Shown one piece after another: positions 3,732-55,392 of a stretch of 64,000 nt of DNA. Origin of the DNA: an uncultured Candidatus Saccharibacteria bacterium (GTDB lineage: Bacteria; Patescibacteriota; Saccharimonadia; Saccharimonadales; JAGQNK01); contig CAZWRG010000002.1 in the NCBI GenBank assembly GCA_964636355.1, positions 32,746 through 96,745 on the forward strand. The letters are read 5' to 3'. Below the pieces are notes generated by a model. It was not told where the DNA came from. It was given only the letters and a program-made list of their open reading frames with translations, and did not search any database. Every line of letters begins with the position of its first letter. Position 1 is the stretch's first letter. The translations under genes and the position numbers were made by a program.

Positions 3732-6284
3732 TTATTTTTGAAAAAAGTTTTTGATTTCTTGTAGGTCGCGTTCTTTCCAGGCAGACTGCCAGGTGAGCAC
3801 TTCAATTCCTTGGTTTATAGCCCGTTCAAAAGCTGGTGTCTTTTTGGGTAGGAAAAAATCTTTAAACTTAACCAGGAAGTCCCGGTTGCTGTAAGCGTTG
3901 GCGGCAAACATTGGGAATCTATAAAAGCTAAGGTCGTCGCCCAAGTTTTCTTCCAGCCAATCCCAATGTTTTTTAATCCATTCCCAGGTTGCGTCGCGTG
4001 CAAAACGGTTTGAGAAACTATACGCTACCCAATATGACACGTCTTGCAACCTAACAGAATCGGAATTGATGAGCTTAAGAGCTCTTTTGATGAGCTCCGG
4101 CTGCTTGAAGTTGGTTAATGCGGCGGCAATAGTGACCCGTTCTTCGCTGGAACTGCTGGCTTCATGAAGCTCAAAAAGTTTATCAAAAGTCGTTTTATCG
4201 CCATGACGAGCCACGCTGGTGTAAATAATGCTTTTAACGTCAGGAGAAATATCCTCAGGTTTGGTCATCGAATTAAATCTATGATGGCACTGCTTGATTG
4301 TTTCAGGGTGATCAGCGCCGGCTGCCAGCCCAAGAATTGTCGGCCTGAGTAGTCTCTGGAAATGGGTTTCATCGTCTTTCGGCTCCCAGCCTAAAATCTC
4401 TAATTGCTTGGCAACTAAGCGGTGGATGTAGGGCTTCATTGATTCTCTTAGCGATTCATCGTCCATCGCTGATCGAGTGGCGGTTATGCCGCTCGCCATG
4501 ACATCCCAAACAGCGTTATCGGATTCTTCTTTGAAGTATTCCAGGAACTTAAAAGCTTCTACAGTTTGGCTCTTGCCAGCTTTCGCTGTTTCAAAAACGT
4601 CACTTAAAATGCCTAGCCTATCTAGTGGCGAAAGTTCACCTTTATCAATTAGCTGACCTAGTCGCGCTAGATGCTCCCGGTCATAAGTCACCCTGTAAAA
4701 ACCGCTTTGTCCGCGGTTAAGTTTGAAATTAGAATTATCCTTAAGAGCGAAGGTTTTAGACTCAGTACTGAGCAGTTCTGGAATGTCTGAATTATTGGCT
4801 AGTAAAGCGATTGGCCAGGTGTCTGATGAGGTTTTTTGAGTTTCTGGATTAATGAAAAACCGTTGCTGTTTGAGTTCAACAGAGCCTGGGTTTAGCTTTG
4901 CTTCGACTATCGGGAAACCGGACTGAGAAGTCCATTTGTGCATGAAATCCTTAACTGGTTTGCCAGATACTTCCTCTAGAGCTTTCCAAAGATCAACCGT
5001 GTCGGTATTGCCGTATTCGTGTTTTTTCAGATAATGACGCAAACCATCACGGAAAGTTTCAGCGCCCAAATAATCATTTAACATATGAATCGCGCTGGCG
5101 CCTTTGCTGTAACTGATGGTGTCAAAAATTGACCTAATTTCATCGGGGTGATTAATTGGCACTTCAATCGGGTGAGTGTGCTCCAAAGCATCAAGTTTAA
5201 AGGCCCGATGCTGTTCGTCGACGGCAAATTGTGTCCACATTTGCCACTCCGGGAAAATATGATCAACCGCCAGGTATTCAATCCAGCTGGCAAAACCTTC
5301 ATTTAGCCAGAGATCGGTCCACCAGCGCATGGTCACTAAGTTTCCAAACCACTGATGAGCTAATTCATGAGCTACCACCATGGCTACATATTGCTTGGTT
5401 GAAACGCTGGTTTTTTTAGGATCAACCAGCATAGTGTGTTCGCGGTAGGTGACCAGACCCCAGTTTTCCATGGCGCCTGACGCAAAATCTGGCAGAGCCA
5501 CCATGTCCAGTTTAGGCAGCGGATATTTGATATCGAAATATTGATTGTAAAATTCCAGGCATTTAACGGCGACGTCCAGGGCAAAATCGGTGTAGTCAAC
5601 GTTGTCAGGCGTGGCGTAAGTGCGAACCGTCACGCCATCTTTGGTAACAGCTTCTTTATAAGACATATTGCCGTAAACAAAAGCCAGTAAATAAGTGCTC
5701 ATCTTTGGGGTGGTTTCAAAAGAGGTGGTCACGAAATCGCCTTCGACAGCTTCTTTTTTAACAGGTGTATTGGCAATTACTTTTTCGCCGTTTGGAGTTG
5801 TAAGCGTCAGGTCAAAAGTTGCCTTGGCCTGTGGCTCATCAATGCAAGGGAAAACTTCTCTGGCGTGATGACTTTCAAACTGGGTGGCGATCAATTGTTG
5901 TTTTTTGCCAGCGTGCTCGAAAAAACAGGGGTAAATGCCATTCATCGCTCGAGTAATTTTACCCTTAAATTTGAGCTTGATGGTGTATTTGCCGGGGTAT
6001 AAAACCTCCGAGGTGTGGAGTCTTACTTCATCAGAGCTTCTGTGGTGGTTTATGCGGCTGACTTTAATTGTAAGCTCGCCGGATTTATCGTGTTTTATTA
6101 TTTCGGCATCGGTAATTTTTAAATCTTTTTGGTGGAGGGTGATTCTTTGGCTGGGACGTGAGGTCTTTTTGCCGCTCAGCGTTAAGGAGCCGCTAAAATC
6201 CTTATGTTCGCGCCGTGGTTTTAGGTGCAGATCATAATGTTCTGGTTGATAGTCAGTGTATAAATGCTTTAAATTTTTCCCCAT
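3732..6284 (-). CDS. pepN: M1-family aminopeptidase N
   Basis: GAMENWGL exopeptidase motif and HELAHQWFGNLVT..x..WLNEGFA zinc site; 850 aa. Confidence 0.9.
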   Translation of the reverse strand: MGKNLKHLYTDYQPEHYDLHLKPRREHKDFSGSLTLSGKKTSRPSQRITLHQKDLKITDAEIIKHDKSGELTIKVSRINHHRSSDEVRLHTSEVLYPGKYTIKLKFKGKITRAMNGIYPCFFEHAGKKQQLIATQFESHHAREVFPCIDEPQAKATFDLTLTTPNGEKVIANTPVKKEAVEGDFVTTSFETTPKMSTYLLAFVYGNMSYKEAVTKDGVTVRTYATPDNVDYTDFALDVAVKCLEFYNQYFDIKYPLPKLDMVALPDFASGAMENWGLVTYREHTMLVDPKKTSVSTKQYVAMVVAHELAHQWFGNLVTMRWWTDLWLNEGFASWIEYLAVDHIFPEWQMWTQFAVDEQHRAFKLDALEHTHPIEVPINHPDEIRSIFDTISYSKGASAIHMLNDYLGAETFRDGLRHYLKKHEYGNTDTVDLWKALEEVSGKPVKDFMHKWTSQSGFPIVEAKLNPGSVELKQQRFFINPETQKTSSDTWPIALLANNSDIPELLSTESKTFALKDNSNFKLNRGQSGFYRVTYDREHLARLGQLIDKGELSPLDRLGILSDVFETAKAGKSQTVEAFKFLEYFKEESDNAVWDVMASGITATRSAMDDESLRESMKPYIHRLVAKQLEILGWEPKDDETHFQRLLRPTILGLAAGADHPETIKQCHHRFNSMTKPEDISPDVKSIIYTSVARHGDKTTFDKLFELHEASSSSEERVTIAAALTNFKQPELIKRALKLINSDSVRLQDVSYWVAYSFSNRFARDATWEWIKKHWDWLEENLGDDLSFYRFPMFAANAYSNRDFLVKFKDFFLPKKTPAFERAINQGIEVLTWQSAWKERDLQEIKNFFQK

Positions 6285-37799: not shown

Positions 37800-38057
37800 A
37801 TGGGTGATTTCTTATTTGAAGCAAAGCGTTGCCCAGCAACCGGGGAGCCTTGTCAGATATTAGAGGATGAAATTACTGGCTCATCTTTTGAAGTCAATCT
37901 TCGCTTTACTCTCGGTACAGCATGCAGGGAAGGAATGCGTGTAGCAAAAATGACTCAAACAGAACAGATTGAGTGTGGGCTGGAGTATGGTGCGCAGCTA
38001 GAAGCGGAACGCGCATCACGTGCAGCTGCAAAAGAAGCAGGAGTCTACTATGCCTAG
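37800..38057 (+). CDS. 85-aa 4-Cys small protein inserted between rpsL and rpsG
   Basis: ATG lies 2 nt after the rpsL stop, with SD aaggaggg upstream. The stop overlaps the rpsG start by 8 nt. Cys residues at 11, 18, 42 and 59 (CPATGEPC...). Confidence 0.55.
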   Translation: MGDFLFEAKRCPATGEPCQILEDEITGSSFEVNLRFTLGTACREGMRVAKMTQTEQIECGLEYGAQLEAERASRAAAKEAGVYYA

Positions 38058-38529: not shown

Positions 38530-38802
38530 ATGTCTCCTGTATCAGGTGTGCCAGCTAGCTGCCAAGATAGATGTCCTCTGGAAGCCCTTCCCGAGAATCT
38601 GATCGTCGATTACCCATTTACAAAAAGATGTAATGGTCCGGTAATGGTAACGGATACGCCTGTTGATAATGAATTTGACATTGAAAATAGCGGCTACGTA
38701 GAAAGGGTTACACAGGATTCTAGAAAAATAGGAGCCAGAGCGTGTACGAACAATGGAGTTGCAATTTATTTAGATAAAATAGCGTCTGGAGAAGGAAAGT
38801 AA
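38530..38802 (+). CDS. 90-aa 4-Cys small protein inserted between rpsG and fusA
   Basis: ATG lies 3 nt after the rpsG stop. The stop overlaps the fusA start (TAATG). Cys residues at 11, 15, 34 and 72 (CQDRC...). Confidence 0.55.
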
Positions 38803-42631: not shown

Positions 42632-42732
42632 CACTCCTGTAAATTAATCGTGGTGACTAAAAGTCGTCTGAATCGTTCTCTATAACGACCAGGAGATGTT
42701 ACACCACAAATTAGAAGATAGGAATTGGCAAA

Positions 42733-42756
42733 TGGAATTTAGAATTCTAAATTCCA
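42733..42756. repeat. 24-nt perfect palindrome in the rpsJ leader
   Basis: tggaatttagaattctaaattcca is its own reverse complement. Imperfect complementarity extends to ~42712-42780. Confidence 0.9.
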
Positions 42757-42798
42757 CAATCCATATTCCAAATTCTAGGACGACTGAAAGGAGTCAAG

Positions 42799-43152: not shown

Positions 43153-43172
43153 CCTACGATAAGCTCAAACTT

Positions 43173-43208
43173 AAAATCATCCATCCTTAACTGAATGGAT
43201 GATTTTTG
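43173..43208 (+). terminator. strong intrinsic terminator directly after rpsJ
   Basis: aaaatcatccat (43173-43184) pairs with atggatgatttt (43195-43206), 10-nt loop, T-run 43203-43207. Confidence 0.85.
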
Positions 43209-43225
43209 TTTAACATGTTATATTA

Positions 43226-43552
43226 ATGCTAATGGCTAAAAAACAAACATCTAAGCAAAAGAAAAAATCACCAGCTCGGCTGCGGCTAAGAAGCAGGGTT
43301 CGTAAAGAGCCACAAACTCCTGATGGGATTTATTTCTTAAAGCTGGTCATGTATCTAATTTTAGGCAGTTTATGGGTAAAAATTACTGATGGCAATACAG
43401 TTCAACTGCCAATACCAGTTGGGTTGTTGCTTGGTCTGGTATTTGCGGCTCATGATAAAGTTCAGCTCGATAAAAAAATCGGTTTTGCAATTCTACTGGT
43501 TGCCATGCTGGTCGGTTTTTGGGCCCCTTTTGGAATCTACATTGCTATTTAA
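43226..43552 (+). CDS. small membrane protein with Lys/Arg-rich N-terminus, inserted between rpsJ and rplC
   Basis: Three hydrophobic segments. An extended -10 TGtTATATT (43216-43224) lies 7 nt before the second ATG (43232), which may be the real, leaderless start. Confidence 0.55.
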   Translation: MLMAKKQTSKQKKKSPARLRLRSRVRKEPQTPDGIYFLKLVMYLILGSLWVKITDGNTVQLPIPVGLLLGLVFAAHDKVQLDKKIGFAILLVAMLVGFWAPFGIYIAI

Positions 43553-43575
43553 TCGAATGTAAAATAAACATCATA

Positions 43576-43605
43576 TTGACAGATGAGCTGGTTACATGCT
43601 AATCT
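43576..43605 (+). promoter_or_regulatory. candidate promoter for rplC and downstream S10-operon genes
   Basis: TTGACA (43576-43581), N18, TAATCT (43600-43605). Confidence 0.45.
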
Positions 43606-43630
43606 GTAACGGTCTATTAAATTTTCCAGA

Positions 43631-43705
43631 CTTGGTGAATGAGGTAGGTCTACAATTGTTCCACTATAGAACAGGGGTAGAAACCATCCATCACCAAGAA
43701 TTTTT
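43631..43705 (+). terminator. attenuator-like long-range stem plus T5 in the rplC leader
   Basis: cttggtga (43631-43638) pairs with tcaccaag (43691-43698), enclosing ~50 nt, followed by aattttt (T-run 43701-43705). Confidence 0.35.
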
Positions 43706-43749
43706 GTGTCATGGGACCAAAATTCTGGAGTAAAAAAGTAAAGGTTGCT

Positions 43750-44364
43750 ATGAAAGCATTAATTACAAGAAAGGTTGGCATGACCAGTACCATTGGTGAA
43801 GATGGTGTGGTGGCTGCTGTTACCTTGCTTTCCGCTAGTCCTTGCGTCATTACGCAAGTTAAGACCGATGAGATTGACGGCTACACAGCTGTCCAGATCG
43901 GCACCGAAGAGGCTAAAAACATGGGCAAGACTCAGGCTGGTCACTTCAAAAAATCAAAAGTTCAACCGAAGGTTGTTCGCGAAGTCCGAGTTGCTGAGAT
44001 TGACGAATCTTTGAAGGTCGGCGAATCAATCAATGTTGACACATTTGCTACTGGCGATGTTGTGTCAGTAACTGCCAACAGTAAAGGTAAGGGTTGGGCC
44101 GGCACAATTAAACGGCATAATTTTCACCGTCAGCGCAAAACTCATGGTGGAAAAGGAAATACTCGAAAACCAGGTTCAATTGGTTCAATGTATCCGCAGC
44201 ATATCTTAAAAGGTAAAAAGATGGCCGGCCAAATGGGCGCCGAACAAGTTACCGTCCGAAACCTAAAAGTTGCCTTTGTTGATCCCGAGTTAGGCATTAT
44301 TGGAGTTACCGGTGCTGTGCCTGGGCCTCGAAAAGGTATTGTTTTGATCAAGGAGGCCAAATAA
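43750..44364 (+). CDS. rplC: 50S ribosomal protein L3
   Basis: MKALITRKVGMTS...; start trimmed from 43711. GKGWAGTIKRHNF motif present. Confidence 0.95.
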   Translation: MKALITRKVGMTSTIGEDGVVAAVTLLSASPCVITQVKTDEIDGYTAVQIGTEEAKNMGKTQAGHFKKSKVQPKVVREVRVAEIDESLKVGESINVDTFATGDVVSVTANSKGKGWAGTIKRHNFHRQRKTHGGKGNTRKPGSIGSMYPQHILKGKKMAGQMGAEQVTVRNLKVAFVDPELGIIGVTGAVPGPRKGIVLIKEAK

Positions 44365-44468
44365 TGTTTCGTTTCACTCAACATCAGTCTCCAGTCTCCA
44401 GTCTCCAGTCTCTTGCGACTAGTGACAGGCGACTAGCGACTAAAACCGACCAAGGGGAGGTTTTGTAA
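44364..44468 (+). other. rplC-rplD spacer module: heptamer tandem repeats, also a 34-codon ORF bounded by TAATG at both ends
   Basis: 4x CAGTCTC (44385-44412), then CGACTAG-type heptamers (44416-44443). The ATG at 44364 shares A with the rplC TAA. The TAA at 44466-44468 shares A with the rplD ATG. Translation: MFRFTQHQSPVSSLQSLATSDRRLATKTDQGEVL. Confidence 0.6.
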
Positions 44469-46594: not shown

Positions 46595-46699
46595 ATGGAA
46601 TTTAGAATATCGAATATGGAATTTAGAATGGGCTTCAATGAAGCTATTCCAACTTCTAACTTCCAGCATCTAACTTCTGCGACTGGAAGGAGCATCTAA
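46595..46699 (+). other. rpsS-rplV spacer module: GGAATTTAGAAT repeats and pyrimidine-rich arm, also a 34-codon ORF ending in TAATG
   Basis: ATGGAATTTAGAAT occurs at 46595-46608 and 46616-46629. Central hairpin gcttc-aat-gaagc lies at 46632-46644. The stop TAA (46697-46699) overlaps the rplV ATG. Translation: MEFRISNMEFRMGFNEAIPTSNFQHLTSATGRSI. Confidence 0.6.
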
Positions 46700-47091
46700 T
46701 GGCAGTTAAAGCAATTGCAAAAGGTGTTCGCATGAGCCCACGCAAAGTTGGTGTGGTTGCTGCATTGGTGCGCGGTAAATCAGTGGCTGACGCATTGACA
46801 ATTTTAGAGCACACTCCGCGACGGGCAGCTGAACCAGTTAAAAAGGTCATTGAGAGTGCTCGGGCTAACGCTGATCACAATCATAACTATAAGGCAGATT
46901 CCTTGGTGATCACCTCAATTAGCGTCACTCCGGGCGCTAGAATCAAGCGATATCGTCCAGCGGCTCATGGCCGAGCATTGCCTTTCATGCGCCGAACATC
47001 GCATATTTTTGTAGCGGTTGATGGCGAACAGCGTGCACCAAAGAAGCCAGCTTCTAAGAAGACCGAAGCCAAGAAAGAGGAGGCCAAGTAA
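46699..47091 (+). CDS. rplV: 50S ribosomal protein L22
   Basis: RMSPRKVGVVAALVRGKSVADALTILEHTP. Confidence 0.95.
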   Translation: MAVKAIAKGVRMSPRKVGVVAALVRGKSVADALTILEHTPRRAAEPVKKVIESARANADHNHNYKADSLVITSISVTPGARIKRYRPAAHGRALPFMRRTSHIFVAVDGEQRAPKKPASKKTEAKKEEAK

Positions 47092-47285
47092 TGGGTTTGT
47101 ATGGAAAAGAATTCTGGTCTGCTGAAATGGATGCAGCTTTGGTAAATGAAAAAGTTAACAGCGCATTTAGTCAGACTTTCAATAAGGATGACAGGGGAGA
47201 GCAGCCCGACAGTCTGGCTCTGCCAGCTGACGGCGCGCTGAGAGGGGATGTTCCCCTCTCAGGAACCGAACGGAGTGAGGTGTAG
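47091..47285 (+). CDS. 64-codon ORF inserted between rplV and rpsC (coding status uncertain; contains an 11-bp hairpin)
   Basis: The ATG overlaps the rplV stop (TAATG), and the stop lies 2 nt before the rpsC ATG. Perfect hairpin ctgagagggga-tgt-tcccctctcag at 47238-47262. Confidence 0.4.
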   Translation: MGLYGKEFWSAEMDAALVNEKVNSAFSQTFNKDDRGEQPDSLALPADGALRGDVPLSGTERSEV

Positions 47286-50417: not shown

Positions 50418-50819
50418 ATGAGCACTACAACAACCGACCCAATAGCTGACATGTTATCTCGAATTCGAAACGCGATAGCAGTTAACAAAACCGAGGTTAG
50501 CTTGCCTCATTCTAATGTAAAAGAAGCAGTTGCTAAGCTTTTAGAGCAATCAAAATTCATTGACAAGGTGAATGTTGAAAAAGCTGAAGTTGGCAAAACA
50601 TTAAAGATTACAATCAACCAGCCGCAAACCAACGCCCGAATAACCGAGATTAAAAGGCTGAGTAAGCCTGGTCGACGCTACTACAGCAGCGCCGATAAAA
50701 TCCCAACAGTTATGCGCGGCCGCGGAATCGTCATCGTTAGTACCAGCAAAGGTATGATGACTGGCGCCCAAGCCAAGAAAAATGGTGTTGGCGGCGAATT
50801 AATTTGTAAAGTTTACTAA
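50418..50819 (+). CDS. rpsH: 30S ribosomal protein S8
   Basis: DPIADMLSRIRNA...GIVIVSTSKGMMT. Confidence 0.96.
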   Translation: MSTTTTDPIADMLSRIRNAIAVNKTEVSLPHSNVKEAVAKLLEQSKFIDKVNVEKAEVGKTLKITINQPQTNARITEIKRLSKPGRRYYSSADKIPTVMRGRGIVIVSTSKGMMTGAQAKKNGVGGELICKVY

Positions 50820-50911
50820 AGGAGTAGAAAGTAAAAAGTAGAAAGTTCATAAAGTAATAACTTTGAAACTTTTAACTTGATAACTTTATACTTTCGACTA
50901 AAGGAGAAAAG
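50820..50911 (+). repeat. rpsH-rplF spacer module: AAAGT-repeat arm / ACTTT-repeat arm imperfect hairpin, non-coding
   Basis: gtagaaagtaaaaagtagaaagttcataaagt ... aactttgaaacttttaacttgataactttatactttc. It ends cgactaaaggag before the ATG at 50912. No start codon and no open frame. Confidence 0.7.
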
Positions 50912-51451
50912 ATGAGTCGTATAGGAAAACTGCCAATCGATATCCCGAGCGGCGTGACAATCACTGTAGACCCTGAATGGATTACAGTTTCTGGGAGCAA
51001 GGGCACCCTCAAACAATTCACCATGCCAGGCGTAACAGTCAAGCAGCAAGACAACCAAATTGTGGTAACTCGTGACAATGACGAGCCAGTTAATCGATCC
51101 AAGCATGGGCTGATGCGGACTTTAATCAACAATATGGTTGTTGGTGTTAGCCAAGGCTTTGAAAAGAAACTTGAAATCAATGGTGTTGGTTTTAGGGTTG
51201 CAATGGCCGGCAATGGCTTGAAGCTAAACCTTGGTTTTTCTCATGATGTAAATTATGCTTTACCAACTGGCATAAGTGCCGCCGTGGAGCAGAATGTAAT
51301 CACCATTTCCGGTATTGATAAGCAGCAAGTTGGTCAAGTTGCTGCTGAAATTCGAGCCCTTAAGAAGCCTGAGCCATATAAAGGTAAAGGAATTAAATAC
51401 GTTGGCGAGCGAATTATTCGCAAGTCTGGTAAGTCAGGAAAGGACAAGTAA
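50912..51451 (+). CDS. rplF: 50S ribosomal protein L6
   Basis: [16 protein letters not shown]...PEPYKGKGI. Confidence 0.96.
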
Positions 51452-51811: not shown

Positions 51812-52363
51812 ATGGCTGAACAAAGAAGAAACAGGCAGCAAGCACCGACAGAAGAAAAACAGTTCGACGAACGAGTGGTTCATATTGACCGCGTCGCCCG
51901 TGTTGTTAAGGGTGGTCGACGATTTAGGTTCCGCGCCCTAGTGGTACTTGGTGATCACAAAGGCAAGGTTGGAATTGGTATTTCAAAGGGTGCTGACGTA
52001 ACAGCAGCCGTCGCCAAGGCAGTTGATGTTGCCAAGAAAAACATGGTATCGATTCATCTTTATAACGGCACAATTCCACATGAAGCCGAAGCTAAAGTAA
52101 GCGGTGCTCGAATCTTAATCAAGCCAGCAGCGCCAGGTACCGGTTTGATTGCTGGTGGTGTGGTACGAACAGTTCTTGAAGTAGCTGGCGTCAACAATGC
52201 GCTTTCAAAATCACTCGGCTCAACTAATAAAATTAATATTGCTTACGCCACTTTAGAGGCCTTGCAATCAGTCGTGCCGGCTGCCGAATGGCTGACAGTT
52301 AAAAGTAAAAAGTCTCAAGAATCAGCCACCAAAGCTAAGAAAGCAGCTGAAGGAGCAAAATAA
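51812..52363 (+). CDS. rpsE: 30S ribosomal protein S5
   Basis: VVHIDRVARVVKGGRRFRFRALVVLGD and PAAPGTGLIAGG. Confidence 0.96.
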   Translation: MAEQRRNRQQAPTEEKQFDERVVHIDRVARVVKGGRRFRFRALVVLGDHKGKVGIGISKGADVTAAVAKAVDVAKKNMVSIHLYNGTIPHEAEAKVSGARILIKPAAPGTGLIAGGVVRTVLEVAGVNNALSKSLGSTNKINIAYATLEALQSVVPAAEWLTVKSKKSQESATKAKKAAEGAK

Positions 52364-52833
52364 TGAAATTTAATGATTTAAATCTGACTAAAAATCGTTC
52401 CCCAAAGCGAGTTGGCCGCGGTACGGCTTCTGGTCACGGTAAAACTGCTGGCCGAGGCACCAAAGGTCAAAGCTCGCGCTCTGGCGGCAAGGTTCGTCCA
52501 GGTTTTGAGGGCGGTCAAAACCCACTTTATAAGCGGCTTCCAAAGCTGCCGGGTTTTACTTCTCACCGGCCAAAAGCTGAGAATATTTACACTGGCCAAT
52601 TAGATGCTTTTGCGGGCAAAACAGTTGATAATTTTACACTGGCAAATGCTGGCTTAGTCTCCAGCCCATACACCAAAGTAAAGTTAATCTCAAAGGGCGA
52701 AGTGACTAAAAAAGTCACTGTCAAACTGCAAGCAGCCAGTGAAACGGCTATTGAAGCTGTTCAAAAAGCTGGTGGCAGTTTCAGCGTGGTTGATCAGGTC
52801 AAAAGATTGCCCAAAGAAAAATCTGACAAATAA
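52363..52833 (+). CDS. rplO: 50S ribosomal protein L15 (follows S5 directly; no L30 gene)
   Basis: KRVGRGTASGHGKTAGRGTKGQ. TAATG junction with rpsE. Confidence 0.95.
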   Translation: MKFNDLNLTKNRSPKRVGRGTASGHGKTAGRGTKGQSSRSGGKVRPGFEGGQNPLYKRLPKLPGFTSHRPKAENIYTGQLDAFAGKTVDNFTLANAGLVSSPYTKVKLISKGEVTKKVTVKLQAASETAIEAVQKAGGSFSVVDQVKRLPKEKSDK

Positions 52834-52856
52834 ACCGCAATTTTAAAATCACTGAT

Positions 52857-52896
52857 AAAAACTGCTCTTTTATGTAGTATACTAGGAGCAGTTTTT
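52857..52896 (+). terminator. stem-loop with T-run between rplO and secY
   Basis: aaaaactgctc (52857-52867) pairs with gagcagttttt (52886-52896), 18-nt loop. Confidence 0.5.
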
Positions 52897-52927
52897 ATGT
52901 TGAACTTGAGGGGAAAATACTGATTTT

Positions 52928-54433
52928 ATGAACTGGAAGATTATTTGGAAATCATTTAGCAATAGCGACATGCGCGGCCGTATTTTGGCTGTCCTGGGGA
53001 TGTTGCTGGTATTCAGAATTTTAGCTCATGTGCCTATTCCGCTAAGTGATCCGCAAACCCTAAGACAAGTTCTGGAAAACCTTTTTTCCTCGGCTGATAC
53101 GCCGCAGCTTCTGAGTTTTATTGATGTTTTATCTGGTGGAGCATTGGCTAATTTTTCAATTATGCTGGTTGGACTTGGTCCATACATTAATGCCAGTATT
53201 ATTATGCAACTGCTGACCAAAGCTATTCCGCAGCTTGAAAATCTTAATAAAGAGGGTGAATTTGGTCGGCGCAAAATCAATCAATACACTAGAATTCTAA
53301 CCTTGCCGCTAGCGATTATACAATCAGTCGGTGCCATTTACCTGGTGCGCCAATCGGCACTTCAGATCGGCGGAATTGGTGACATTACCGCTAATACATC
53401 AATTGCCCAGTGGGTGTTGATGGTCGCTTCGCTAACTGGTGGCGCCATGCTGCTGATGTGGCTGGGAGAACTAATAACCGAACAAAGCATCGGTAATGGA
53501 ATATCGCTGCTAATCACAGTTGGAATTGTCAGTACTCTGCCGGCGACAATCTCCAGTCTTTATTCGGCGGTTTTCAGTGGCGGCGAAACAAGTATCTTAG
53601 GATTCAAGTTCGGTTTTGACCGTGCTCAAGCGATTTATGCTGGGATAATTGTGGCGGTTACAGTTTTGATTACTGTATTGGTGGTTAAAATTAACGAGGC
53701 TTCGCGGCGATTGACCATTAACTACGCCAAACGAGTTCAGGGCAACCGAGCTTACGGCGGCGTGACAACTGTTCTGCCAATCAAATTAATAACCGCCGGT
53801 GTGATTCCGATAATTTTTGCGGTCGCCTTTTTGAGTGTGCCGGCTTTCGTCGGTCAAATATTGTCCGGCGCCGGTAGCGCCAGACTTCAGGAAATCGGCG
53901 CTAAGCTTACTATTTGGTTCCAAAATCCCAGCCCGCAGACCTTCATGCAAGAAGGATTCACGCCATATATTTACCCGCTGGTCTATTTCTTGTTAGTTTT
54001 TCTATTTACTTTCTTCTACACCAGCATCACTTTCAACAGCAAAGAAATAGCAGAGAACTTACAAAAACAAGGTGGATTTATTGAAAATGTTCGCTCCGGC
54101 GCGCAAACAGAGAAATACTTAAGCCGAATTGTGAACCGTTTAACACTATTCGGAGCTGTGGCTCTCGGACTACTAGCACTAGTGCCGATTATCGGCCAGG
54201 CTTTTCTTCAGACCAACATTGCGCTTGGTGGAACCAGTATTTTGATCTTGGTATCAGTAGCGCTTGAAACCTTACGAGCCGTTGAATCTCGAGCCTTAAT
54301 GGTAACTTATGATCAGTACGAACAGCCTGATTTCTTTTATGATACCTCTGTTCCAGCCGAAGCTGCCACTGGCGGACGACGACTAAAATTCCTGCCCAAA
54401 CGAAACAAAAAATCGACCACCGATAAAAAATAA
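52928..54433 (+). CDS. secY: preprotein translocase subunit SecY (C-terminally extended)
   Basis: 10-TM profile with GLGPYINASIIMQLL and LMWLGELITE. ~60 aa basic tail. Confidence 0.95.
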   Translation: MNWKIIWKSFSNSDMRGRILAVLGMLLVFRILAHVPIPLSDPQTLRQVLENLFSSADTPQLLSFIDVLSGGALANFSIMLVGLGPYINASIIMQLLTKAIPQLENLNKEGEFGRRKINQYTRILTLPLAIIQSVGAIYLVRQSALQIGGIGDITANTSIAQWVLMVASLTGGAMLLMWLGELITEQSIGNGISLLITVGIVSTLPATISSLYSAVFSGGETSILGFKFGFDRAQAIYAGIIVAVTVLITVLVVKINEASRRLTINYAKRVQGNRAYGGVTTVLPIKLITAGVIPIIFAVAFLSVPAFVGQILSGAGSARLQEIGAKLTIWFQNPSPQTFMQEGFTPYIYPLVYFLLVFLFTFFYTSITFNSKEIAENLQKQGGFIENVRSGAQTEKYLSRIVNRLTLFGAVALGLLALVPIIGQAFLQTNIALGGTSILILVSVALETLRAVESRALMVTYDQYEQPDFFYDTSVPAEAATGGRRLKFLPKRNKKSTTDKK

Positions 54434-54490
54434 TAAAACTCTTTACAAACTGTAGTCATATTTGCTATACTTCATTGACGTTATATCTGT

Positions 54491-54712
54491 ATGGCAAAAA
54501 ATAAGGAAGTAATCGAGTTAATGGGAGTAGTAAAAGAGGCCCTTCCAGGGACTCAGTTCCGTGTAGAGCTCGAAAACGGTCATCAGATTATAGCTCATGT
54601 TGCCGGTAAAATGCGAAAACACTACATTCGTTTGGTACCGGGCGACAGCGTTACGGTAGAATTGACACCTTACGATCTTACGAAGGGTCGGATAACGTAC
54701 CGCAAGTCCTAG
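54491..54712 (+). CDS. infA: translation initiation factor IF-1
   Basis: [52 protein letters not shown]. Confidence 0.97.
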
Positions 54713-54894: not shown

Positions 54895-54898
54895 AATT

Positions 54899-55006
54899 AT
54901 GAATAATTTTATCAAGTTAAAAGTTAAAAGTGTAAAGGTAAAAGTAGCTCAACTTTCTACTTTCAACTTTCTACTTTCAACTCAAGTTACCGGAGGTAAC
55001 AAATAA
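54899..55006 (+). other. rpmJ-rpsM spacer module: purine-rich / pyrimidine-rich arms, also a 35-codon ORF ending in TAATG
   Basis: Arm aagttaaaagttaaaagtgtaaaggtaaaagtag faces arm aactttctactttcaactttctactttcaactcaagtt. ATG at 54899; the TAA at 55004-55006 overlaps the rpsM ATG. Translation: MNNFIKLKVKSVKVKVAQLSTFNFLLSTQVTGGNK. Confidence 0.6.
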
Positions 55007-55392
55007 TGGCGCGAATATCTGGAGTAACCATTCCGGACAATAAGCAAGTGCAAGTGGCGCTTACTTATGTTTATGGAATCGGCCCCAAGACCGCTGGTGA
55101 TATTTTGACACAAGCCAAAGTTGAGCCAACCGTAAGGACCAAAGAATTAACCGATGCCGAAATTTCACGCATCCAAGATGTTATCAACGAGACGCTAACT
55201 GTAGAAGGTGAACTTCAAAGAATTGTTAGTACTAACATCAAGCGTCTGAAAGACATTGGCAGCTACCGTGGTATGCGCCACAAAGCCAACTTGCCAAGTC
55301 GCGGACAGCGCACCCGAACTAACGGACGATCCCGCCGGGGTCGTAAGGTCGCCGTTGGTGGAGCACAACCTAAATCAGCATCTAAGACATAG
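55006..55392 (+). CDS. rpsM: 30S ribosomal protein S13
   Basis: MARISGVTIPDNKQVQVALTYVYGIG...GSYRGMRH. Confidence 0.97.
   Translation: MARISGVTIPDNKQVQVALTYVYGIGPKTAGDILTQAKVEPTVRTKELTDAEISRIQDVINETLTVEGELQRIVSTNIKRLKDIGSYRGMRHKANLPSRGQRTRTNGRSRRGRKVAVGGAQPKSASKT

Follow-up and report, generated by a model that had tools for sequence, protein, structure and literature searches.

A heptamer-repeat palindrome between rpsH and rplF in a Saccharibacteria ribosomal-protein operon: probably a tolerated member of a family of exchangeable cassettes

The stretch of DNA analysed here (64,000 nucleotides, in the following simply the window) contains a compact S10-spc-alpha ribosomal-protein operon on the + strand, in which most neighbouring genes overlap or lie 1-2 nt apart. 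Between rpsH, which ends at 50819, and rplF, which starts at 50912, lies a gap of 92 nt (50820-50911) with an A+T content of 74%. This spacer is an imperfect palindrome of 73 nt made of units of about 7 nt. Four copies of AAAGT, starting at 50828, 50835, 50842 and 50851 (spacing 7, 7 and 9), are followed by an AATA apex and then by five copies of ACTTT or ACTTG, the former at 50860, 50868, 50883 and 50890 and the latter at 50875 (spacing 8, 7, 8 and 7). With nine copies, the 100-nt stretch at this junction has the highest AAAGT/ACTTT density of the 64 kb, the next being the rpmJ-rpsM spacer with seven. The strings quoted from the spacer in the initial annotation, as well as the apex aaagt-aata-acttt, were exact on re-reading. 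Its assignment of the spacer to an AAAGT/ACTTT repeat family common to other spacers of the operon was borne out.

The 3' end of the spacer reads CGACT-AAAGGAG, an ending that had been recognised from the start, and is followed by 5 nt and the rplF ATG. From the predicted fold, AAAGGAG would be the functional Shine-Dalgarno sequence of rplF. The ending belongs to the same class of 3' module as GCGACTGAAAGGAG, which is found in the window at 42779-42792 and 46674-46687, in L006, L007 and L015 and at 62 metagenome loci. In addition, a 10-nt direct repeat, ACTAAAGGAG, flanks the core. Its right copy (50897-50906) lies inside the 3' module. Its left copy takes in the end of rpsH (last codon plus TAA stop) and the native Shine-Dalgarno sequence, now a decoy that no start codon follows. 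As for coding capacity, the spacer has neither ATG nor GTG, and its three sense frames hold 2, 4 and 5 stop codons. This agrees with the earlier view that the spacer has no coding potential. A single TTG at 50877, within the right arm and without a Shine-Dalgarno sequence, opens a frame of 12 codons ending in an ATGA overlap with rplF. The features are collected in Table 1.

Table 1. Parts of the rpsH-rplF spacer and further cassettes of the window
Feature	Position	Strand	Basis
Type A cassette, 5' leader of rpsJ	42711..42795	+	fold z = -4.5
Type B cassette, rplC-rplD, CAGTCTC x4 / GCGACTA x4, 34-codon mini-ORF	44364..44468	+	
Type A cassette, rpsS-rplV, GGAAT units, GCGACTGGAAGGAG module, 34-codon mini-ORF	46595..46699	+	
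Left copy of the 10-nt direct repeat ACTAAAGGAG	50815..50824	+	read from sequence
Left arm, purine-rich ~7-nt units GTAGAAAGT, AAAAAGT, AGAAAGT, TCATAAAGT	50823..50855	+	AAAGT positions and fold
Apical loop AATA	50856..50859	+	sequence and fold
Right arm, complementary units ACTTTGAA, ACTTTTA, ACTTGATA, ACTTTAT, ACTTTC	50860..50895	+	ACTTT positions
Putative promoter-like match TTGAAA-18-TATACT in the right arm	50863..50892	+	10/12
3' module CGACT-AAAGGAG (CGACT 50895-50899, AAAGGAG 50900-50906)	50895..50906	+	unpaired in fold
rpmJ-rpsM cassette, second AAAGT/ACTTT core, inverted	54895..55005	+	alignment, shared k-mers

Because the arms differ by indels, an inverted-repeat search missed cassettes of this kind, and custom k-mer and period detectors were used in its place. 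A detector for a 5-mer repeated at least three times and then followed by its reverse complement, again in three or more copies, found 3 sites in the window, compared to none in 30 dinucleotide shuffles. When folded as RNA, the rpsH-rplF spacer forms a single long beaded hairpin (-18.6 kcal/mol, z = -2.4), and 6 of 200 shuffles did as well. With DNA parameters the z-score is -3.7 for the + strand and -3.4 for the - strand, and no shuffle out of 200 was as good. The mean 100-nt window of the operon reaches -22.0 (sd 5.4), so that the hairpin is weaker in absolute terms; it is distinctive in design and composition, not in raw stability. In the minimum-energy fold, GGAGUA (50821-50826) pairs with UACUUU (50889-50894), thus burying the decoy GGAG (50821-50824), and both AAAGGAG (50900-50906) and the rplF AUG are unpaired.

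Several conventional assignments were considered for this structure. An intrinsic terminator, with a G+C-rich stem and a U-run, was dropped since there is no terminator-like call within 50820-50911; what comes after the stem is CGACUAAAGGAG. An autoregulatory site for S8 (spc) or S4 was rejected because a strain with a 100% identical S8 has an unrelated sequence at this position. The Alpha_RBS family (RF00140) was rejected too: its hit lies over the rpmJ-rpsM cassette rather than the rpsH-rplF spacer and reaches only 22.7 bits, below the gathering score of 38. No Rfam family matched the spacer, the other cassettes or the wider set of module-bearing and viral members described below.

The window holds five cassettes, and none is found in the remaining ~48 kb. 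In the case of the rpmJ-rpsM cassette, the relation to the rpsH-rplF spacer can be followed at the nucleotide level. The 12-mer AAAGTAGAAAGT occurs at 50835 on the + strand and at 54952 and 54966 on the - strand (expected number 0), and the exact 16-mer ACTTTTAACTTGATAA is common to the rpsH-rplF right arm and the reverse complement of the rpmJ-rpsM spacer. Alignment of the rpsH-rplF core with that spacer scores 57 as reverse complement and 39 directly, shuffles giving 17.7 +/- 2.9. Sequence sharing in inverted orientation, as initially proposed, is thereby confirmed. The rpmJ-rpsM cassette carries a stop-to-start mini-ORF of 35 codons (54899-55006) and a small Shine-Dalgarno hairpin, GUUACC-GGA-GGUAAC, and its sequence is identical in an independent assembly (L085). 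The rpsS-rplV cassette is conserved in three further contigs (L086, L087 and L088). The one in the rpsJ leader forms a hairpin at 42711-42778, followed by a mini-hairpin with the Shine-Dalgarno sequence, GACU-GAAAGG-AGUC.

Insight into the origin of the spacer was gained from relatives. RplF assigns the window to Candidatus Saccharibacteria, with identities of 84%, 82% and 78% to the best species representatives. In the nearest species (L001, L002, L003 and L005), rpsH and rplF are separated by no more than 8-29 nt, with no palindrome. Deletion in silico of one ACTAAAGGAG copy together with the core leaves TTTACTAAAGGAGAAAAGATG, a clean and normal junction with a 10-nt gap. Since this matches the 8-29 nt of the relatives, the spacer can be read as an insertion of 82 nt. 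Judged by its sequence, the ACTAAAGGAG duplication resembles a target-site duplication. A flanking repeat of this type was seen for the rpsH-rplF copy of the window only, and was not found around the copies in L008, L019 and L015. At the rpmJ-rpsM copy, TCAAGTTA was examined as a target-site duplication and rejected, as it implies an ancestral spacer of 39 nt that is found in no relative. A search of the 64-kb window for transposase, integrase and RAYT genes found none. Cassettes are always sense-oriented and sit exactly at start codons, a pattern for which a random inserter would need strong filtering or targeting.

Conspecific contigs, found by exact-protein look-up, gave a more direct view of these events. 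Three of them (L081, L082 and L083), from three samples, have an unrelated type A cassette with GGAAT-type units at rpsH-rplF. RpsH is identical in L081 and L082, where the gap of 104 nt is read whole; RplF is identical in L083, which begins inside the gap. This other cassette contains an ORF of 33 codons that leaves just 1 nt free on either side, after the rpsH stop and ahead of the rplF start. Outside two swapped spacers, L081 and the window are 98.98% identical over 8.2 kb, with no cluster of SNPs at the borders. The second swapped spacer is rpmJ-rpsM, where the L081 cassette is 79.5% identical to the rplC-rplD cassette of the window. The rplC-rplD and rpsS-rplV cassettes are the same in both haplotypes. 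As far as can be told from these alignments, the cassettes at rpsH-rplF and rpmJ-rpsM are exchanged for unrelated members of the family between strains with 99% identical flanks. Another contig, L160, was rejected as a conspecific empty site: its identity falls from 98.7% upstream of rpmJ to only 68% downstream, which marks it as chimeric or recombinant. The window's own cassette at rpsH-rplF has no independent assembled copy, as Logan contigs end there (L083, and L162 from the sample of the window strain).

These observations bear on the question of whether the spacer could have arisen in place, by replication slippage of heptamers and template switching between the arms of a quasi-palindrome, with neither mobility nor function. 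Heptamers are the commonest long simple-sequence repeat of bacteria, for which polymerase slippage has been proposed in work cited in PMC4679880, and the number of units among the paralogues of one genome (L008) does differ in steps of 7 nt. Slippage would not predict the inverted second copy 4 kb away with its exact 12- and 16-mers, the 10-nt flanking duplication, an unrelated cassette with the same borders in a conspecific strain, or a 3' module common to several genomes. We regard this origin as very improbable.

To place the spacer in a wider context, operon genes were mapped in 33 Saccharibacteria loci, leaving out gaps due to N-terminal extensions of S5 or S11. The distribution of gaps is bimodal, with values of either -4 to +36 nt or ~88-137 nt. 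Altogether 24 cassettes were identified in nine loci, not counting that of the rpsJ leader in the window. All of them have arms made of heptamer arrays, with a unit that varies by family (AAAGT, GGAAT, CAGTCTC/GCGACTA, AGTTT/AAACTAC, ACAGT/ACTGT, GCAACAT, CGTATAC and others). Copies within one genome can be alike, as shown by five of one type in L008 and two near-identical ones each in L007 and L015. A period of 7 is the sole non-coding tandem period above threshold in the window; 19 period-7 arrays were counted in 282 kb of Saccharibacteria operon loci and only 1 in 465 kb of other phyla, which is ~31-fold fewer. The larger ORFs filling such gaps showed no Pfam domains and no homology among themselves.

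The arrays are followed by a recurrent 3' module. In type A cassettes it reads GCGACTGAAAGGAG-N6-TAATG, of which the rpsH-rplF spacer has a shortened form, and in type B cassettes CGACCAAAGGGAG-N6-TAATG, the latter type also having a conserved 5' end, ATGAANCGCTTCACTTCNCATCAG. Because native operon junctions already read AAGGAG-N6-TAATG, each cassette duplicates a translation-initiation region. In several copies the Shine-Dalgarno sequence sits in a small 3' hairpin, AUAAUUC-GGA-GAAUUAU being an example besides GUUACC-GGA-GGUAAC and GACU-GAAAGG-AGUC. According to the predicted structures, this arrangement would favour ribosomes coming through a mini-ORF.

Such a stop-to-start mini-ORF, which begins on the upstream stop or beside it and ends at the downstream start, is found in 18 of the 24 cassettes. 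The other frames contain 2.65 stops on average, which corresponds to a chance of about 7% that a given frame is open. The peptides of type A mini-ORFs are completely different between copies. Ideal heptamers were then restored by giving each position the consensus of the bases 7 and 14 nt away on either side. With this restoration, in-frame stops rose from 0 to 7 in the ORF frame and stayed at 97 in the other two frames. Avoided stops include CAG in place of UAG (L008, L081) and GUA in place of UAA (the rpmJ-rpsM copy of the window). As departures from the heptamer remove in-frame stops, what is selected is the open frame and not the peptide, and the simplest reading is that translational coupling is kept. 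The same effect accounts for the advantage of ~10 kcal/mol that the antisense strand of type B cassettes has in folding, since the C.A mismatches of the sense strand are avoided stop codons. A function of type B in bottom-strand DNA or antisense RNA was rejected for this reason, the mismatches sitting where UAG would stop the mini-ORF. ORF-less copies show no consistent asymmetry between sense and antisense folds.

The initial annotation had taken the RNA hairpin rather than a peptide as the shared property of the family. The second half of this statement holds, as no peptide is conserved; the first half has to be modified, since openness of the frame is selected, and arrays and module are what the members have in common. 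Its use of the rpsH-rplF spacer as a control against the mini-ORFs of the other spacers could not be upheld in view of the 18 open frames out of 24 against ~7% expected, and because the ORF-less state is specific to the junction. Four of the five cassettes at rpsH-rplF lack an ORF (those of the window, L008, L015 and L019), compared to 2 of 19 elsewhere (one-sided Fisher ~0.006, calculated by hand and uncorrected for paralogy). Relatives always have a gap of 8-36 nt with its own Shine-Dalgarno sequence at rpsH-rplF. The native gap at rpsN-rpsH is similar, yet cassettes keep their ORFs there, so that the native gap does not settle the clustering.

Hairpins of like design and different sequence are present at rpsH-rplF in L008, L015, L019 and L081, with z-scores from -2.2 to -3.9. 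The independent occurrence of hairpins at this junction in four lineages (window/L081, L008, L015 and L019) could mean function rather than tolerance, and so could the conservation of the 3' module across distant metagenome contigs. One such function would be that of a host cis-regulatory RNA in the spc transcript, serving as a site for RNase III or RNase Y, a barrier to 3'-exonucleases or a 5' stabiliser, and uncoupling or tuning the expression of the rpsH-proximal and rplF-distal parts. Beyond the recurrent hairpins, this would fit the Shine-Dalgarno sequences held in small 3' hairpins, the persistence of the rplC-rplD and rpsS-rplV cassettes across strains, and the retention of the module upstream of highly expressed genes. 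Against it, the element is missing from the closest species and is replaced by an unrelated one within the species, its absolute stability lies below the operon average, ORF-less copies show no strand asymmetry, Rfam gives no match, and in ORF-bearing copies the hairpin is sacrificed for the open frame. Overall we consider a cis-regulatory RNA unlikely, the recurrence at this junction and the conserved module being what keeps it under consideration.

Two checks had been proposed along with the initial annotation, namely stability relative to shuffled controls and presence in related genomes, and they point in different directions: the fold beats shuffles (z = -2.4), yet the spacer is absent or unrelated in close relatives. 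Given the modest stability, the absence from the nearest species and the replacement in a conspecific strain, selection for an RNA hairpin in the rpsH-rplF spacer is not demonstrated. A conserved regulatory role is likewise not demonstrated, and on the reading preferred below the cassette is not a conserved regulator.

A different kind of function was suggested by the promoter-like match in the right arm (Table 1), which might represent an internal sigma-70-type promoter with a start at ~50899, yielding a short-leader transcript for rplF and the downstream genes. The match is among the three best on the + strand in 16 kb, the other two matches of 10/12 being located at sensible operon starts (42604 and 54442), and only 0.56% of composition-matched spacer shuffles reach this score. 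However, it was picked post hoc from one of 25 cassettes, none of the others exceeding 9/12, and promoter-like matches in the region are at chance level (28 compared to 22.6 +/- 5.4). Both the 18-nt spacer and the ~13-nt leader are marginal. A promoter at this site therefore seems quite improbable to us, and promoter-like motifs as a general property of cassettes were rejected, the others reaching 9/12 at most.

Taken as a whole, we favour, with a confidence only slightly on the positive side, the reading that the rpsH-rplF spacer is a lineage-specific palindromic insertion of 82 nt, an ORF-less member of a set of exchangeable heptamer cassettes found at translation-initiation junctions, which is tolerated and probably selfish or neutral. 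The cassette would have landed at a native junction of the form TTTACTAA-AGGAG-AAAAG-ATG and left ACTAAAGGAG on either side; the repeats themselves are visible, and the mechanism of landing is deduced from them. Within the transcript, the arms are predicted to pair into a beaded hairpin of short helices and small internal loops, which would loop out the inserted 73 nt. The basal helix would bury the useless upstream Shine-Dalgarno sequence, and CGACU-AAAGGAG as well as the rplF AUG would stay single-stranded. Folding back in this way may place the rpsH stop a few unpaired nucleotides from the real ribosome-binding site, near the ancestral spacing. L6 would still be made because the Shine-Dalgarno module brought by the cassette and the rplF AUG are left single-stranded in the folding model. 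The insertion would thus be tolerated since the RNA folds back, masks the decoy and supplies a new Shine-Dalgarno sequence. In the ORF-bearing copies elsewhere, ribosomes would instead reach the downstream start by reading on through the mini-ORF after the upstream stop. The inversion of the core between the two family C (AAAGT/ACTTT) copies, and the presence of the same heptamer and architecture in a phage (L153, described below), speak for a mobile core. The net effect is probably a tolerated, translation-compatible insertion that is selfish or neutral.

These cassettes are of interest in several respects. Ribosomal-protein operons are deemed highly conserved and compact and serve as phylogenetic markers, and here they carry hypervariable, strain-specific cassettes. 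Such cassettes break assemblies, yield spurious small genes in annotation and differ between genomes that are 99% identical. Moreover, they represent a natural experiment on translational coupling, in that at most junctions they survive only with ribosome read-through.

The cassettes were compared to known repeat systems. Palindromic elements of Rickettsia are insertions that survive in essential genes by keeping the frame open. These elements insert within coding sequence and join the protein, whereas the cassettes are intergenic and have a separate mini-ORF or none. The attC sites of integrons are imperfect palindromes of 57-141 bp, conserved in structure and not in sequence, which lie between operon-like cassettes and are tied to exchange. 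Unlike attC sites, the cassettes are flanked by core ribosomal genes; no conserved R'/R'' core sites or shared inverse cores were recognised in them, and the 64-kb window contained no integrase.

Transposon-like repeats show a mixture of likeness and difference. MITEs and small palindromic repeats (Correia/NEMIS, ERIC, RU-1/2/3; reviewed by Delihas, PMC2229807 and PMC2759123) share with the cassettes a length of ~100 nt, long co-transcribed hairpins, polymorphism in presence and absence, several copies per genome and ORFs in some members. A flanking direct repeat is present at the rpsH-rplF copy and was not found at those of L008, L019 and L015. The cassettes differ in being found only at stop/start junctions in one orientation, in having no known cognate transposase, and in that one family member replaces another at identical borders. 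Nor do distinct terminal inverted repeats enclose a unique core in the cassettes, which are repeat arrays throughout. REP/BIME elements (PMC3733652), mobilised by RAYT and tagged with GTAG or CGTC, are likewise extragenic imperfect palindromes inside operons, with a short tag beside the stem (here CGACT on the top and AGTCG on the bottom strand) and proposed roles in mRNA stability. REPs are 20-40 nt long, G+C-rich and not made of tandem units, and the tag of the cassettes is neither GTAG nor CGTC. The rpsH-rplF palindrome, with 73 nt in a spacer of 74% A+T, does not fall into the REP/RAYT class; GTAG occurs only within its repeating unit and is absent in other families.

Heptamer repeats are a further group to be considered, and the STRR heptamers of cyanobacteria are kindred elements. 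The nearest published phenomenon to the Saccharibacteria cassettes is the TAACTGA heptamer array. In Beggiatoaceae, cyanobacteria and Bacteroidetes, such arrays closely precede start codons, also within ribosomal-protein operons (MacGregor 2015, PMC4679880). Both systems have tandem 7-nt units in 2-6 or more copies, are intergenic and abut start codons, are missing from close relatives with shorter spacers and have no assigned function. In the cassettes, however, the unit varies from copy to copy, the arrays are inverted and fold back, and most members carry a stop-to-start mini-ORF. TAACTGA arrays usually replace the Shine-Dalgarno sequence, whereas the cassettes have a separate strong module (AAAGGAG) after the arrays. 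Thus the cassettes share the 7-nt unit with this class, and lack a single conserved direct TAACTGA unit in place of the ribosome-binding site. A search of the literature for the module string and for repeat elements of Saccharibacteria or Patescibacteria found nothing relevant, and the cassette family is apparently undescribed.

We then looked beyond the operons of Saccharibacteria. A scan of metagenome contigs for GCGACTGAAAGGAG-N5-8-TAATG returned the 62 loci mentioned above, and in at least 18 of the 57 distinct upstream sequences the module is immediately preceded by clear heptamer arrays, either inverted or direct only. Direct arrays with no inverted partner were seen in this set in L100 and L127 (L143 is also direct-only), so that heptamer arrays together with the Shine-Dalgarno module, and not the hairpin alone, are the common denominators. 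Among the genes downstream of the module are those for ribosomal proteins (S3, S5, S11, S4, S14, S7, S9 and L21) as well as for Hsp70/DnaK, ATP synthase alpha (AtpA), SerS, an ACT protein, an acyl-CoA dehydrogenase and an ABC/C39 exporter. Apparent 5'-leader cassettes, e.g. the one upstream of DnaK in L100, have no mini-ORF. Module and arrays in front of DnaK, AtpA and ribosomal genes tie the family to the old question of 7-nt repeats beside start codons.

The heptamer arrays may also be viewed as platforms for a single-strand binder taking up ~7 nt per domain, such as S1 or an OB fold of the cold-shock type, which would act as enhancer or standby site, with the inverted arrangement as a switch to hide or expose it. 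In the published analogue, S1, Csp and Csr have been proposed as binders of TAACTGA arrays, and CspB binds one heptamer per protein (PMC4679880). The strict 7-nt period, the purely direct arrays of some module-bearing members (L100, L127 and L143), and the constant position of the arrays right beside the ribosome-binding site, in many cases that of a highly expressed gene, are in line with this idea. On the other hand, the sequence of the unit is wholly different between families (AAAGT, GGAAT, CAGTCTC, AGTTT, ACAGT and others), which means that no sequence-specific binder suits all of them; a single-strand binder would also have to compete with pairing between the arms, and no candidate protein was identified. 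For these reasons a binding platform appears rather improbable.

More speculatively, the cassettes might be a distinct, undescribed class of element, combining a portable ribosome-binding module, GCGACUGAAAGGAG, with programmable heptamer arrays. Such elements would be inserted and exchanged site-specifically at stop/start junctions of highly expressed operons, with coupling kept by read-through mini-ORFs, and a dedicated factor, taking up ~7 nt per domain, would read the arrays so that they tune the stoichiometry of ribosomal proteins strain by strain. In this full form we hold the proposal to be unlikely.

Finally, the GAAAGTA heptamer of the rpsH-rplF spacer is also present in viral contigs (L152, L153 and L154). 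Portal, capsid and tail-terminator genes mark L153 as a genuine phage, and the same architecture is found there between structural genes on the coding strand. In L154 and L152 the arrays comprise from 17 to more than 25 units.

Beyond the cassettes, some gaps in the ribosomal-protein operons also hold open reading frames without a recognised family. In the case of rplV-rpsC, the orphan ORF has no match in Pfam, and the same sequence is present at this position in all four of the strain contigs. Inside this frame there is a perfect 11-bp hairpin, CTGAGAGGGGA-TGT-TCCCCTCTCAG, and the 3' end of the frame, CCGAACGGAG, resembles the module, the Shine-Dalgarno-containing end of the cassettes. In the str operon, two further gaps contain orphan ORFs, neither of which is matched in Pfam, and these show no likeness to each other or to the other inserted ORFs. 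The one ahead of fusA terminates in a TAATG that overlaps the fusA start.

Features located in the window and in L086, a contig of the sister strain (L081)
Feature	Coordinates	Strand	Context	Remark
Orphan ORF, 85 aa	window 37800-38057		rpsL-rpsG gap, str operon	
Orphan ORF, 90 aa	window 38530-38802		rpsG-fusA gap, str operon	
S10 operon interruption, 558 nt	window 43153-43710		rpsJ-rplC	
ORF, 108 aa	window 43226-43552		rpsJ-rplC stretch	
Orphan ORF, 64 codons	window 47091-47285		rplV-rpsC	exact fill of 196-nt gap
Sigma-70-like motif, TTGAAA-18-TATACT	window 50863-50892	+	right arm of rpsH-rplF cassette	
Hairpin, AAAAACTGCTC...GAGCAGTTTTT	window 52834-52927		rplO-secY spacer	
Promoter-like site, TTTACA-18-TG-TATACT	window 54442-54471		secY-infA spacer (54434-54490)	good match
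Insertion, 270 nt, L081 strain	L086:2022-2295		rplB-rpsS	

The L081 strain carries an insertion between rplB and rpsS, in which an 89-aa orphan ORF likewise terminates in TAATG. Because the corresponding gap in the window is only 12 nt long, this insertion is strain-specific and gene-sized, and lies within the S10 operon. The rpsJ-rplC interruption includes a terminator-like hairpin, AAAATCATCCATCC..GGATGGATGATTTTT, and an ORF that finds no Pfam match and, judged by eye, looks hydrophobic.

Regarding gene content, rpmD (L30) is missing between rpsE and rplO (window 51812-52833), in agreement with the absence of L30 reported for Patescibacteria. Furthermore, adk and map are missing between secY and infA (52928-54712).

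At the rpmJ-rpsM junction, an Alpha_RBS (RF00140) match from Rfam (window 54934-55038; 22.7 bits, below the gathering score of 38; E = 0.09) takes in the start of rpsM as well as part of the cassette. This match is probably spurious, since the conspecific strain carries a different sequence there. One further contig (L160:1-2472) is 98.7% identical to the window through the end of rpmJ, but only 68% from rpsM on, with a gap of 2 nt between the two genes; either the assembly is chimeric or recombination has taken place at this junction.

The sigma-70-like motif in the rpsH-rplF cassette is among just three 10/12 matches on the + strand over 16 kb. Unlike the cassettes, the rplO-secY hairpin is not built of heptamers.

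On a metagenome contig (L118), a heptamer cassette lies upstream of serS. The same contig has a RAGATH-18 RNA match exceeding the Rfam gathering score (1665-1714), which is unrelated to that cassette. The GAAAGTA/TACTTTC heptamer of the rpsH-rplF cassette also occurs on IMG/VR viral contigs (L153:585-680, L154:about 3900-4150 and L152:1-250). L153 is a true phage, in which a cassette-like hairpin sits between structural genes, and the arrays on L154 and L152 comprise 17 to more than 25 units.
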